64,000 nt of DNA from Candidatus Woesearchaeota archaeon (GTDB taxonomy: Archaea; Nanobdellota; Nanobdellia; Pacearchaeales; GW2011-AR1): contig CAYPFA010000001.1 of NCBI GenBank assembly GCA_964410025.1, positions 31,401 to 95,400 of the forward strand, in the 5' to 3' direction. Shown here one piece after another: positions 18,362 through 40,083 of this stretch. The notes below the pieces were generated by a model. It was not told where the DNA came from and ran no database searches. It was given only the letters and a program-made list of their open reading frames with translations. The translations under genes and the position numbers were made by a program. Every line of letters begins with the position of its first letter. Position 1 is the first letter of the stretch.

Positions 18362-20215
18362 TTAATTTCCTAATTCAAAATCGCCATATATTTTCTTAAA
18401 AATTCCCATTACCTCTGGAACAATCTTAACAGTATCTGCTTTAGAATCGGACAATGCTTTATTTAAATCATCAACATTCGAATCAACAAGTTTTTCTCCT
18501 CTTAATACGAATACTTTCCCAGCATCGACAACATAAACACTTTTCAAAAAGAAAACCTCAACAAGTTTTTCTGCTGTTTTTAAAACAAATCTCTTTCTAT
18601 CTATAGCAACAAAATCTTTTCTCTGAACATATTCAATCATAACATTTGTGATCTCTGCAGCCATTTTTCTGACATCTTCCATAGCAGTAATTTCTTTTGC
18701 CGTAACTTTTTTCTTTTTATCCTTATCAAAAGCTTCAAAATCTTTTTTAGTTTTAATAATAAATTTCAAATTTTCAGAAAATCTCGGCGGCATCTTTCCC
18801 TGCTTCACAAATTCATCATCGAATGCTTTTATAATAGCTGATTCTCCGCTCTTGCCCAATAAAGAACCAATCATTCCGAAAACGTCGCCATAAACCTGCG
18901 CAATCGACTTGTCCTGCATTCTTTTTTCAATCTGTTCTCTTAATTGCTTTAATCTTTTTATATAATCAATAGCATCTTTAGCAACTCTTTCAACTTCACT
19001 TCCACTCACTTTCTTAATCTTACCATGCTCCATTCCCTTATAATATTTAATACTAATTTCTTCCAAAATATCAGCATACTTCTTTTCAATTAATTTTTCT
19101 TTCTCAACAAATAATTCTCTAAACTCTTTGACAGTATCATAAACATTTCCCGGTGCTCTTCCATACAACATCAAAAGTCCTTGCGTTGGATATGAAACTC
19201 CAGTAAAAATATCCATAGTGACTATATCTAATAATCTTCTATTAATATTATCTTCAAGTCTATCTCCCGTCGACATAAACATATCCAAAGATTCTCTAGA
19301 TGCCTTAATCTTGCCCATCTTTAATAAAGATTTCCAAGGCAAAAATGCTCCTCTATCATAAAGTGGTATTCCGTCTCTAATAAAAGTAAACATAACTGGA
19401 TGAGCATCCTTAACCGCTTCCCAGAATTCAGTCATCAAATAAACCTGCGGAGAAAGAAGATTTTTAACGCCAGCAATAGCCGTTGCTTCCTGAATATATT
19501 GAAAAATAACTGAACGTAATTTTTCTTTCAATTCAAACCTAGGCATTCTTTTTACATCCGTATCATCAATAATAATAAAAACATCCACATCTGAAGTAGG
19601 CTTTGTTGTTCCTCTAACTAAACTTCCACCAATAACATAAGCACTAACATACTTTTCGAATTTTCTTAAAACCAAGGATTTGTGTATAGATGAAACTCTA
19701 AGCGCACCAAGTAATCCCTTATCTAAAATAGGATATGACATCGCCAAAGCTTCAAAAACATCGAATTTAGAATCCAATCCCAAATTCCAAATATCCACTG
19801 GAGTCATAATGTGCATCCAAATTTTATCATTAATATCTTTTGCTTTCTTTATGCACTCAAGTCTAATTTTCTGGATTTCCTTAAATTTATCCTCAGGAAC
19901 AACAACCAAAAGATGTATTAATTTTCTCTTGCAATCCGCTTCAGGAACCTCATACTCTTCTTCAATTTTTTGCGAAGCCTGAGCAGGAACAATTCCAATA
20001 GATTCTATAAATTTATATTGCTTAACCAAATCTTTTTTTAATTTTTCAATATCTGCCTTCGTTTTATCCATCTGCTTCACGACTTCTTTATCAAGTTCAT
20101 TTGCCATCGGTAAATTACCTAGCTTTGATTTTGGAATATAACCAGCAGAAAGATTTTGCTCAACAGTTTTTTCTTCTTCCTTTTTTCGATCTTTTTCAGA
20201 ATTACTATCAGCCAT
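18362..20215 (-). CDS. large nucleotidyltransferase-domain protein
   Basis: GGSLVRGTTKPTSDVDVFIIIDD is the pol-beta superfamily NTase signature. It is embedded in a 617-aa protein with a coiled-coil N-terminus and a long helical C-terminal region. Confidence 0.6.
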   Translation of the reverse strand: MADSNSEKDRKKEEEKTVEQNLSAGYIPKSKLGNLPMANELDKEVVKQMDKTKADIEKLKKDLVKQYKFIESIGIVPAQASQKIEEEYEVPEADCKRKLIHLLVVVPEDKFKEIQKIRLECIKKAKDINDKIWMHIMTPVDIWNLGLDSKFDVFEALAMSYPILDKGLLGALRVSSIHKSLVLRKFEKYVSAYVIGGSLVRGTTKPTSDVDVFIIIDDTDVKRMPRFELKEKLRSVIFQYIQEATAIAGVKNLLSPQVYLMTEFWEAVKDAHPVMFTFIRDGIPLYDRGAFLPWKSLLKMGKIKASRESLDMFMSTGDRLEDNINRRLLDIVTMDIFTGVSYPTQGLLMLYGRAPGNVYDTVKEFRELFVEKEKLIEKKYADILEEISIKYYKGMEHGKIKKVSGSEVERVAKDAIDYIKRLKQLREQIEKRMQDKSIAQVYGDVFGMIGSLLGKSGESAIIKAFDDEFVKQGKMPPRFSENLKFIIKTKKDFEAFDKDKKKKVTAKEITAMEDVRKMAAEITNVMIEYVQRKDFVAIDRKRFVLKTAEKLVEVFFLKSVYVVDAGKVFVLRGEKLVDSNVDDLNKALSDSKADTVKIVPEVMGIFKKIYGDFELGN

Positions 20216-20300
20216 ACCATATTGATGTTTTTGTGCTTTTTAAATGTTAAGAAACATATTCGTAAGCTTTAAAAGTCTTGAAAATTCTAAATTATTATAA

Positions 20301-20406
20301 GGGCCTATAAGCTAATGAACCATCGTGGTTGCTTATGGGTAAATAATAAATAAGGGCCTATAAGCTAATGAACCATCGTGGTTGCTTATGGGTAAATAAT
20401 AAATAA
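20301..20406 (+). repeat. two tandem 53-bp units, each starting with the first 17 nt of tRNA-Val
   Basis: Unit = GGGCCTATAAGCTAATG + AACCATCGTGGTTGCTTATGGGTAAATAATAAATAA. Identical copies lie at 20301-20353 and 20354-20406, and the third period begins the real gene at 20407. The unit is self-complementary (CCTATAAGC/GCTTATGGG and AACCA/TGGTT). Confidence 0.85.
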
Positions 20407-20477
20407 GGGCCTATAAGCTAATGGTAGACTCTCTCGCTTACACCGAGATGGCGGAGGTTCGATCCCTCCTGGGCCCA
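20407..20477 (+). tRNA. tRNA-Val (anticodon UAC)
   Basis: Acceptor GGGCCTA/TGGGCCC (one G-U), with T8, A14, G18G19 and A21. Anticodon arm TCTCG-CTTACAC-CGAGA and T arm GGAGG-TTCGATC-CCTCC. Discriminator A, and CCA is not encoded. The D stem has one C-A mismatch. Confidence 0.8.
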
Positions 20478-20503
20478 TTTAATATTTATAATTGAACCGG
20501 AGC

Positions 20504-20605
20504 TGGCGGAGGCGAAAATTTCGCTTTGAGTAAAAATAAATTAAGACAGAAAGCAATTTTTACGAAATGCAAAATTTGAGGAGATCCCTCCTGGGCCCAT
20601 TTAAT
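20504..20605 (+). repeat. partial 3' copy of tRNA-Val with 70 nt inserted in the T loop
   Basis: 20504-20512 TGGCGGAGG equals tRNA nt 44-53. A 70-nt insert follows (20513-20582). Then 20583-20605 GATCCCTCCTGGGCCCATTTAAT is identical to 20461-20483 (tRNA nt 57-73 plus 6 nt of flank). Confidence 0.7.
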
Positions 20606-20651
20606 TAAATACAATATAAATTCTTTTAAACCTATAGAAATTCCTTAATTC

Positions 20652-21107
20652 ATGCACATAAAAAATTTAGCAGATAGTTTGAATGTTACACCAGTTCCAA
20701 ATGTTGTTTGCAACGGAGATTTAATCGAAGTCCACAGAGGAATCGGCTGGCTAAAAAATACAATTGGAACAACCGATTTTCAAGAAACCTTACACAGATT
20801 TCATCCAGGACATCGAATGGGCGGAAATCATTATCATAAAAATAAAATTGAAGTTATAACAGTTTTAGAAAATCCTCTAGAAATTCATCTCGTAGACCCA
20901 AAAACAAAAACTTATTGGAATCAAGAAATACAACCAAATCACCAATTTACACTCGTCCCAGAAATCGCACACGCATTATTTTATAGAGGAAATAACCTAG
21001 CAATTGTTCTCGAACATGCCTCATTGGTTTTCAACCCAGCAGATCCAAGAAAAGACGTAATTCCATTTCAAATATTAGACAAAGAAACATATAATCAAAT
21101 TTACTAA
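20652..21107 (+). CDS. cupin-fold protein
   Basis: GGNHYHKNKIE (G..HxH....E) and PEIAHAL resemble the two cupin motifs. Confidence 0.5.
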   Translation: MHIKNLADSLNVTPVPNVVCNGDLIEVHRGIGWLKNTIGTTDFQETLHRFHPGHRMGGNHYHKNKIEVITVLENPLEIHLVDPKTKTYWNQEIQPNHQFTLVPEIAHALFYRGNNLAIVLEHASLVFNPADPRKDVIPFQILDKETYNQIY

Positions 21108-32150: not shown

Positions 32151-32231
32151 AATATTAAAATTAAAGAGCACTACAAATCTTTTTAAATCCTCGAAAAGTT
32201 ACATTCTTAGGCAGTCGTGGTTAAGTGGTAG
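32151..32231 (+). repeat. 81-bp direct repeat, right copy (functional promoter plus 5' part of tRNA-Gly)
   Basis: Identical to 24849-24929. The TTTTTAAAT TATA-like box is centred about 27 nt upstream of tRNA position 1. Confidence 0.8.
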
Positions 32232-32281
32232 AATATGACCTTGCCAAGGTTGTGACCCGAGTTCGATTCTCGGCGACTGCA
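32211..32281 (+). tRNA. tRNA-Gly (anticodon GCC)
   Basis: Acceptor GCAGTCG/CGACTGC and D loop AAGTGGTA. Anticodon arm TGACC-TTGCCAA-GGTTG and T arm CCGAG-TTCGATT-CTCGG. Discriminator A, and CCA is not encoded. Confidence 0.85.
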
Positions 32282-32329
32282 TAGAACAAAAGTGTTCAAC
32301 ATGAGAATCTTTATAAAATAAAATCATTG

Positions 32330-32372
32330 CCGAGAAGCGAAGGAGGAGAGTGAGATTCTCGGCGACTGCATA
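32330..32372 (+). repeat. partial 3' copy of tRNA-Gly with an expanded T loop
   Basis: CCGAG is followed by 19 nt (AAGCGAAGGAGGAGAGTGA) replacing TTC. Then GATTCTCGGCGACTGCATA is identical to 32265-32283 (tRNA nt 57-73 plus 2 nt). Confidence 0.7.
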
Positions 32373-39585: not shown

Positions 39586-39783
39586 AGCTTTGTTGAGCTA
39601 CCATGTTATACTCCGAGAAATAAAAAATTGCGAGTAGGGAATCGGATTTGTAGATTTATAGGCAGATGGGCTGGAAGGTGCGAGCAAAACGCTTTTGCTT
39701 TTATCTTGCACAGCAACTATTATTTCGTTTTTCGCAAATGCATTTTGTGAGTAAAGAATCGGACTGACCGATTCACATTTAAG

Positions 39784-39927: not shown

Positions 39928-40083
39928 GGCGGAAGGTGTGAATCGGACACACGTCTCACGAGTTCTGTCTTGTTGTCTGTCGCCAGACAGGAAGGATAGT
40001 TTTTCTACCTTCCTAGAGGCTCTTTTTTCTAAAAAGAACCTGTAGACCACAGTCGCGTATTCTACCATTGAACTACATCCGCC
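39928..40083 (-). tRNA. tRNA-His (anticodon GUG) with an 84-nt intron at 37/38
   Basis: The 5' exon is encoded G-1, GCGGATG, D arm GTTC-AATGGTA-GAAT, then CGCGA-CTGTGG. The intron spans 40046-39963. The 3' exon is C-TCGTG, AGAC, T arm GTGTG-TCCGATT-CACAC, CTTCCGC and discriminator C73 opposite G-1. Splice sites lie in 3-nt bulges (GG|T and AA|C) flanking a CTGT/ACAG helix, a relaxed bulge-helix-bulge. Confidence 0.7.

Follow-up and report, generated by a model that had tools for sequence, protein, structure and literature searches.

We analyzed a 64,000-nt stretch of the Candidatus Woesearchaeota archaeon assembly G000 (the window, G000:C1:31401-95400), in which a hairpin element, here called H, interrupts a partial second copy of the tRNA-Val(TAC) gene. 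The host assembly comprises 830 kb in 6 contigs, has a G+C content of 33%, and is 88% complete. With its small genome, its archaeal-type tRNAs, and a splicing endonuclease gene (a PF01974 match at G000:C1:311406-311666, 91 bits), the host has the look of a DPANN archaeon. The target gene, an intact tRNA-Val(TAC), occupies 20407-20477 of the window and was predicted by ARAGORN and, over its full length and with 57.5 bits, by the Rfam tRNA model. It lies on the plus strand, as do all the features described around it.

The end of this gene, from nucleotide 57 in the T loop to the discriminator base, forms together with a 6-nt trailer (TTTAAT) the first direct repeat, DR1 (20461-20483). Behind it comes a left spacer, ATTTATAATTGAACCG (20484-20499), with the string ATTGAAC at 20491-20497. 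The next 13 nt, GAGCTGGCGGAGG (20500-20512), here called A', are a diverged direct copy of tRNA nucleotides 41-53, that is, of the variable loop and the 5' strand of the T stem, and 12 of the 13 positions are identical to 20445-20457. An earlier note on this DNA had placed TGGCGGAGG at 20504-20512, 26 nt past the end of the gene; these coordinates were correct, and the copy proved longer than that 9-mer. A' abuts H (20513-20580, 68 nt), which takes the place of T-loop nucleotides 54-56, and a 2-nt linker, GA (20581-20582), leads to the second direct repeat, DR2 (20583-20605). DR2, GATCCCTCCTGGGCCCATTTAAT, is an exact second copy of the tRNA 3' end and trailer, identical to 20461-20483. The 70-nt insert (20513-20582) and the perfect 23-nt copy that follows it had been described in the same note, and both stand. 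Read in order, the second copy contains tRNA nucleotides ~41-53, H, and nucleotides 57-76 with the 6-nt trailer, and it has no nucleotides 1-38; the tRNA upstream is whole.

The 99 nt between DR1 and DR2 contain no open reading frame (ORF), and the 102-nt feature that the earlier note pointed out makes up the right-hand portion of a longer footprint, 122 nt in all (20484-20605). The view that such a pattern is not due to chance was borne out. The 23-mer has just two occurrences, DR1 and DR2, in the whole 830-kb genome, its composition-based probability of arising at a given place is 2e-15, and the longest downstream-flank match at 200 random genomic places was at most 13 nt. It was also right that this is not a simple contiguous duplication of an attachment (att) site, as the second T arm is interrupted by the 68-nt unit and the 2-nt linker.

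H belongs to a repeat family. At the valine locus its sequence is laid out as CGA-AAATTT-C-GC-T-TT-GAG-TAAAAAT ... ATTTTTA-CGA-AA-T-GC-A-AAATTT-GAG, and the family follows the pattern YGA-N6-CGCTTT...AAATGCA-N6'-GAR, with the fuller consensus Y-GA-N6-C-GC-T-YY-...variable loop...-RR-T-GC-A-N6'-GA-R. The segments N6 and N6' are complementary yet vary by copy (ACGATT/AATCGT, GCAGTT/AACTGC, ACATTT/AAATGT). A covariance model (R1), whose top match was the valine element with 82.8 bits, found 23 copies in G000; a strict pattern scan of both strands confirmed 19 of these and added 2 new ones, so that the genome holds at least 25. The copies are 51-90 nt long and non-coding, and their arms form a covarying hairpin.

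In an alignment of ten sequences, 93.5% of the cells were paired and 10 of the 17 pairs had changed on both sides. The values rose to 94.4% of the cells and 14 of the 17 pairs with 37 distinct model-aligned sequences, an alignment that is biased toward the structure because it was fitted to the model. In the latter, 92 cells were changed on both sides versus 25 in shuffles, and none of the 500 shuffles reached as high a number. When the partner was slid by 1-3 columns as a control, pairing went down to 27-56%. Certain non-canonical positions, namely C.A, T.T, and two tandem G.A/A.G steps, are fixed in every aligned copy. That the stems covary across copies suggests a fold made by a single strand. 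It is not the fold of the palindrome GCGAAAATTTCGC, to which the earlier note had drawn attention: that palindrome is peculiar to the valine copy, and the covariation backs a long hairpin whose paired segments include 20516-20521 and 20572-20577.

The distribution of the family is narrow and patchy, with multiple copies per genome. Of the 120 further genomes of the order that were searched with R1, 5 had matches; they all belong to the same family and have 1-10 copies each. In G005, a genome of the same genus, the insert matched at least nine separate sites at 68-84% identity. Among the Rfam models applied to 20100-20800, tRNA alone passed, and the next-best scores were 10-25 bits versus cut-offs of at least 35 bits. 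Viral contigs gave 26 and 2 pattern matches, none of which scored under the covariance model, and we therefore attribute them to chance. The insert was also sought in phage, plasmid, and viral collections, as the earlier note had advised, with no match, and our literature search found no description of the hairpin element. According to that note, a match to the end of a known integrated element would reduce the locus to nested att scars. The insert does belong to a repeated, insertion-type family, but no known element matched it.

All 23 model copies lie between genes; the sole overlap, at one copy, is with an ORF on the opposite strand that we judged spurious. About 10 of the 23 lie within 300 nt of a tRNA gene (30 genes according to ARAGORN), a zone that covers ~2.4% of the genome; the vicinity of tRNA genes is strongly overrepresented. 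The sites of the family are tRNA-Val, Pro, Met, Gln (two genes), Ile, Thr, Leu, Phe, and His, and a protein gene. Behind tRNA-Pro, tRNA-Met (two units), tRNA-Gln(CUG), tRNA-Gln(UUG), tRNA-Ile, and tRNA-Val the order of the parts is identical. An intact tRNA with a trailer of 3-8 nt is followed by a spacer of 16-80 nt and by 8-15 nt duplicated from the tRNA stretch that immediately precedes the insertion point on the 5' side (TTCAAATC or TTCGAATC, depending on which tRNA is the cognate one, and GAGCTGGCGGAGG at Val). Then come H with its exact ends YGA...GAR, a 2-nt NA linker (GA, CA, AA, or TA; seen at Val, Pro, Met, both Gln, and Val-GAC), and an exact copy of the remaining tRNA through the trailer, 11-23 nt long. 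The layout shared by the tRNA and protein genes can be abbreviated as [A B trailer]-spacer-[A' H B trailer].

H substitutes for 1-4 nt of the second copy at nine sites or more (eight linked to tRNAs and one to a protein gene), and at least nine sites have the 8-15 nt of their own target directly 5' of H. Where H lies in the second copy of a gene end, the real gene upstream has been left whole. Exact direct repeats of 11-44 nt come immediately after H at Val, Pro, Met (two), Gln (two), and the protein gene, the flanking repeats measuring 11, 11, 11, 13, 13, 23, and at least 44 nt; at tRNA-Ile the direct repeat begins 34 nt past H. The end of the protein gene (C1:239351) reads TGGCACGG, H, and GATGCG..., with AGGC of the target replaced and a 44-nt exact repeat after H. 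In the second valine gene, tRNA-Val(GAC), the hairpin likewise stands after nucleotide 53, and the string ATTGAACCGGAG of the tRNA-Val(TAC) spacer recurs in its satellite spacer. What is seen at tRNA-Val(TAC) exemplifies a pattern found across the genome, in which a hairpin repeat is embedded in duplicated ends of genes, mostly tRNA genes.

Another motif, S, consists of a 7-bp covarying stem with the loop GARNAAAGYGA and forms the beginning of the spacers, 4-10 nt past the 3' ends of the tRNAs for Leu, Met, Lys, Gln (two), Leu, and Ile (seven loci). We read the string ATTGAAC of the valine spacer as the probable remaining 5' half of this stem-loop. The S sites (G000:C1:170127, 170420, 240231, 248282, and 346827; C2:94378; C3:104285) come after tRNA 3' ends or their copies and are confined to tRNAs with hairpin satellites.

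Eight tRNA-Val(TAC) loci were compared among relatives. The locus in G000 has one hairpin, after nucleotide 53. Two are present in G005: H-b, after nucleotide 53, with an A' (GTCACAGG) that is a copy of its own T stem, and H-a, within the 3' strand of the T stem. In L041 a single inverted hairpin adjoins an inverted T-arm copy. The loci of L042, L043, L004, L006, and L007 have no hairpin and no tRNA-end repeat, and a gene lies close behind the tRNA. A' at tRNA-Val is GGCGGAGG in G000 versus GTCACAGG in G005, and the valine hairpin of G000 is nearer to a non-tRNA copy of G005 (84%) than to the tRNA-Val copies of that genome (68-69%). L043 has an identical tRNA-Val and an upstream flank of ~90% identity, without the downstream unit. 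Judging from these comparisons, H probably serves no purpose for tRNA-Val, which functions in relatives that have no hairpin there. The 3' end of tRNA-Val (20478-20490) is also a synteny breakpoint relative to L044, and the downstream genes on contig Ga0247841_10001430 correspond to G000:C1:206737-212465; ~2.7 kb of this contig, with ice-binding-like and exosortase-like genes, has no counterpart in G000. The gene adk is on the 5' side of tRNA-Val in G005 and L042.

At tRNA-Pro, the whole architecture is common to G000 and G005. The tRNA-Pro genes of these two genomes differ in the T arm and in the acceptor stem, and in each genome all three pieces (A', DR2, and the inverted copy of the T loop) agree with the tRNA of that species. 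At tRNA-Pro of G075 only the exact inverted T-loop copy has been kept. Since the flanks match each species' own tRNA, the pieces were made or remade from the local gene, and the route could have been repeated insertion, conversion, or a templating step. On this comparison the flanking pieces are in all probability not old scars in neutral decay.

Of the copies matched by the strict pattern scan, 17 are plus-strand and 2 minus-strand; in contrast, the minus strand, which is the G-rich one, carries 60% of the long ORFs of C1 and C2. Plus-strand copies of H stand on the upstream side of two minus-strand genes, tRNA-Leu(AAG) and tRNA-Phe, and duplicates of the 5' ends of these tRNAs come after H there; another plus-strand copy is inverted within the 3' satellites of the minus-strand tRNA-His. 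Plus-strand hairpins also occur between minus-strand genes. The GC skew is exceptionally strong and even: per 20-kb window it is negative throughout all of C1 (356 kb) and C2:1-140000, with values of -0.03 to -0.33. Where |GC skew| is greater than ~0.08-0.1, the sense strand of H coincides with the C-rich strand for 12 of the 14 copies of G000, and the count is the same, 12 of 14, for three relatives taken together. We take it as a lead that the orientation of H goes with the chromosome strand and not with tRNA polarity; it is only a lead because the copies are not independent and because skew also mirrors gene direction. An orientation tied to the chromosome strand speaks for a process operating on DNA strands and counts against co-transcription with the tRNA.

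Copies of tRNA ends are widespread in G000. Copies of the 3' end (at least 11 nt, within 600 nt downstream) accompany 16 of the 30 tRNA genes, and copies of the 5' end (at least 12 nt, within 400 nt upstream) accompany 9 of the 30. The former occur at 13 of 19 plus-strand versus 3 of 11 minus-strand tRNAs, and the latter at 2 of 19 plus-strand versus 7 of 11 minus-strand tRNAs, so that the satellites are mostly on one chromosomal side of the gene. Tandem 3'-end arrays are also found at Ile, Met, and Leu. The valine gene has a separate 5' satellite, a 53-nt tandem repeat of 2.4 copies at 20297-20423 on the plus strand (100% identity in Tandem Repeats Finder). Within each unit, 4 nt of leader and tRNA nucleotides 1-17 are combined with a mini-hairpin (AACCA-TCG-TGGTT) and with an inverted, imperfect copy of tRNA nucleotides 3-12. 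The two extra units are missing from L043 despite the ~90% identity of its upstream flank. Analogous 5' satellites are present in L041, a more distant relative.

The window contains a second copy of the hairpin family, at 39676-39758 on the plus strand (R1 match at G000:C1:71076-71158, 27.9 bits; strict pattern match), among the 3' satellites of the minus-strand tRNA-His. This tRNA gene (39928-40082), which ARAGORN does not detect, contains an insert of 87 nt where a canonical intron would stand. It is followed downstream by three tandem 3'-end copies with a different small hairpin, ATCGGAC-AA-GTCCGAT, and the last of these copies is interrupted by the plus-strand family hairpin. At tRNA-Gly(GCC) (region 32211-32372) there is an exact 19-nt copy of the 3' end (32354-32372, identical to 32265-32283), with merely ~19 nt of filler between and no family hairpin. 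The copy is preceded by GCCGAGAA, which fits the reverse complement of the T-loop end and T-stem 3' strand (8 nt) over the direct T-stem 5' strand (5 nt). At two minus-strand tRNAs, the gene end and its duplicate are separated by a member of another small repeat family, ...CCC(A)AAGGGATCACCTCTGYKGAGGCGTCA... (G000:C1 near 333490, 5' of tRNA-Thr UGU, and near 263600, 3' of tRNA-Lys UUU).

Several known identities were tried for H. For a bulge-helix-bulge (BHB) intron, which was a lead of the earlier note, the strict scan of 20484-20615 gave no match; the relaxed scan gave 21 matches versus 19.9 in shuffles, none with bulges at 20512/13 and 20582/83, and the lead was dropped. A hidden intron-bearing tRNA was sought by excising all 23 copies in silico with boundaries shifted by up to 14 nt, and ARAGORN found no tRNA among the products; at Val, removal of the insert leaves a 4-nt T loop, not a restored tRNA. 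Inspection of the alignment led us to reject a K-turn or L7Ae site: the helix that contains the tandem G.A pairs is continuous, has no 3-nt bulge, and places a covarying Y-R pair next to them. A C/D or H/ACA guide RNA was discarded, as there are no boxes, no pocket, and no Rfam match. The locus has the 23-nt repeat of an att scar, but there is no integrase or other gene in the 99 nt between the repeats and the second copy is interrupted; one family of integrase elements would use a single att site or very few, and the hairpin family is found at many tRNAs and at a protein gene.

Our working interpretation is that the feature is the footprint of an insertion element acting at the DNA level and copying the end of its target, which we regard as probable though well short of assured; the mobility of H is something we infer. 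H would act on DNA, probably as a folded single strand during replication, and an insertion or template-switch process would place it while copying the target end from the local gene, so that the hit gene would stay whole. We suggest a more specific version only tentatively, and consider it rather doubtful: H may be the recognition structure of a replication-coupled system of single-stranded DNA insertion, without a recognizable transposase, that targets stem-loops at gene ends (above all the T arms and D arms of tRNAs) and rebuilds the hit gene from a local template. Insertion into an expressed copy would then be a DNA-level source of the non-canonical T-arm introns and the split or fragmented tRNA genes of DPANN archaea.

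A number of results weigh against an insertion element. The copies are diverged (60-84% identity), with no near-identical ones at separate loci and hence no sign of a recent burst, and 13 of the 23 have no detectable flanking repeat. Synteny between G000 and L043 is lost exactly at the 3' end of tRNA-Val, the homologous genes lying ~155 kb away in G000, so that L043 does not provide a precise empty site for the 3' unit; the exact empty-site junction (T loop joined to the downstream flank) had no match when it was sought in a single genome of each species. At this locus, six further metagenome assemblies of the strain were identical, with no differences, and thus showed no movement; short-read contigs break inside the 53-nt repeat. 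The folding energy of the valine copy alone is unremarkable (z = -0.96), and the target-derived A' on the 5' side of H is not accounted for by ordinary target duplication at staggered cuts. Finally, a search of the 88%-complete genome for four enzyme families found no Y1 transposase (IS200-type), TnpB, Cas1, or reverse transcriptase; PF01797 (Y1/RAYT) had no match in G000 and was positive in control genomes. G000 does encode three tyrosine recombinases (C2:76671, C3:137233, and C3:621), one of them next to tRNA-Asp. The ORF of the latter (474 aa, G000:C3:137233-137724) is ~500 nt from tRNA-Asp (138236-138309), and this recombinase may be part of an integrated element.

These recombinases would also suit a history of nested att scars, in which an integrase element entered tRNA-Val through an attP that carried the 3' half of the tRNA, its body was lost, and the hairpin landed in the redundant attR, where it was tolerated. 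The second copy begins near the 3' strand of the anticodon stem, as many attR do, with tRNA-like similarity back to ~20497, and the tRNA-Val 3' end is the synteny breakpoint relative to L043 and the L044 contig. TRNA fragments and intron gain from an integrating element have been described (Sugahara et al., 2012; PMC3293823). We nevertheless consider this history unlikely. Merely 16 nt of non-tRNA spacer separates DR1 from the second copy, A' is usually 8-9 nt and too short for an att arm, and the spacers share the conserved S hairpin, which makes them part of a repeat unit and not a random remnant. Moreover, the layout recurs at no fewer than 12 different tRNAs, at tRNA 5' ends, and at a protein gene, far too many for site-specific integrases in 830 kb. 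The other DNA-level alternative does without autonomous mobility: forks would stall at tRNA genes, fold-back or template-switch repair would duplicate the gene ends, and the hairpins would be templated filler from other loci or be kept as barriers to forks or transcription. It can point to direct-inverted-direct pieces (at tRNA-Pro the order is T arm, inverted CGGATTTGAAC, and direct GTTCAAATC, and similar arrangements occur at the second tRNA-Met copy, tRNA-Gly, tRNA-Phe, tRNA-Val of G005, and L041), to the dependence of satellite side on tRNA strand, to a very strong GC skew with which the hairpin orientation goes, and to the lack of a transposase among the Y1, TnpB, Cas1, and RVT families searched. 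However, the exact ends of H (YGA ... GAR plus NA) and its conserved asymmetric core are more like a recognized site than filler, no duplicated gene end adjoins 13 of the copies, and the skew association comes from few genomes with non-independent copies and reflects gene orientation too, not replication direction alone. We therefore hold this alternative to be improbable.

A role at the RNA level has the least appeal, and we consider it very improbable that H is a T-loop intron, the 3' half of a split or trans-spliced tRNA, or a small structured RNA that is transcribed along with tRNA-Val and set free by the enzymes of tRNA processing. The stems do covary like those of structured RNAs, the copy lies 26 nt downstream of the tRNA on the same strand, and the gene for the tRNA-splicing endonuclease is present. 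However, the junctions have no BHB, there is no 5' half, and the excisions yielded no tRNA at any of the 23 copies and a 4-nt T loop at Val. The orientation of H ignores neighboring transcription, as copies stand upstream of or antisense to minus-strand tRNAs, relatives with an identical tRNA have no hairpin, and no Rfam family matches.

H can be compared with several known systems. MITEs (miniature inverted-repeat transposable elements) and the palindromes of the repetitive extragenic palindromic (REP) and bacterial interspersed mosaic element (BIME) types are short palindromic repeat families, among them REP sequences mobilized by REP-associated tyrosine transposases (RAYT) and the Correia elements. 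H is likewise short, non-coding, multi-copy, and intergenic, an imperfect palindrome with covarying inverted-repeat arms, strand-biased, and patchy at the genus level. The strand bias of a hairpin typical of REP/RAYT or IS200/IS605 elements is seen in the C-rich sense strand of 24 of 28 copies in skewed regions. In contrast to these families, its repeats range from 11 to at least 44 nt, with no duplication of fixed length, and target sequence stands on both sides of the hairpin. It also differs from them in its strong preference for tRNA gene ends and in having no related transposase or RAYT among the enzyme families searched in G000. Integron attC sites are recombination sites that fold as single strands. 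H shares with them a structure conserved over sequence, positions fixed as unpaired or non-canonical, a terminal loop that varies, and a replication-linked strand preference, and tyrosine recombinases are present in G000 as in the integron setting; unlike attC, it has no R''/R' core motifs, no cassette array, and no identified IntI-type integrase, and integron recombination makes no target duplication.

For the non-canonical introns of archaeal tRNAs, an origin by transposition was reportedly proposed by Fujishima and colleagues in 2010. The resemblance is that a family of similar short structured inserts occupies T-arm positions of different tRNAs; the differences are that H lies in non-functional partial copies, has no BHB, and is oriented independently of the tRNA. 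With attL/attR duplications at tRNAs the locus shares an intact tRNA followed by a partial second 3' copy, and a tRNA end that is a hot spot of rearrangement. In contrast to them, the "element" here is 99 nt long and has no genes, the copy is broken in the T arm, and the same architecture is shared by a dozen tRNAs, by 5' ends of tRNAs, and by a protein gene. Among published models, the nearest is that of tRNA disruption by an integrating archaeal element (Sugahara et al., 2012; PMC3293823). In Escherichia coli, the tRNA-linked repeats of the tyrT type are each reported to end in a copy of the tRNA 3' terminus (PMC8144298). The repeats downstream of tRNAs in G000 resemble them in ending in such a copy and in forming the tandem arrays at Ile, Met, and Leu; they belong to another domain and have no sequence relation to them, and the E. 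coli repeats are not known to be dispersed hairpins or to occur at protein genes or tRNA 5' ends.

With 3'-end duplications at 16 and 5'-end duplications at 9 of the 30 tRNA genes, the flanks of tRNAs are the main sites of structural turnover in an otherwise minimal genome. The tRNA "halves" at such sites should be annotated as debris and not as split tRNA genes. Mobile elements have been proposed as the origin of the non-canonical introns, fragments, and split halves of archaeal tRNAs, and a small and abundant agent had not been pinned down. H, which with its exact ends is found repeatedly in the T arm of spare tRNA copies of a single 830-kb genome, is a candidate for that agent. If its insertion is indeed coupled to replication and regenerates the target, it would represent a novel strategy by which selfish DNA exploits essential genes as safe places to land.

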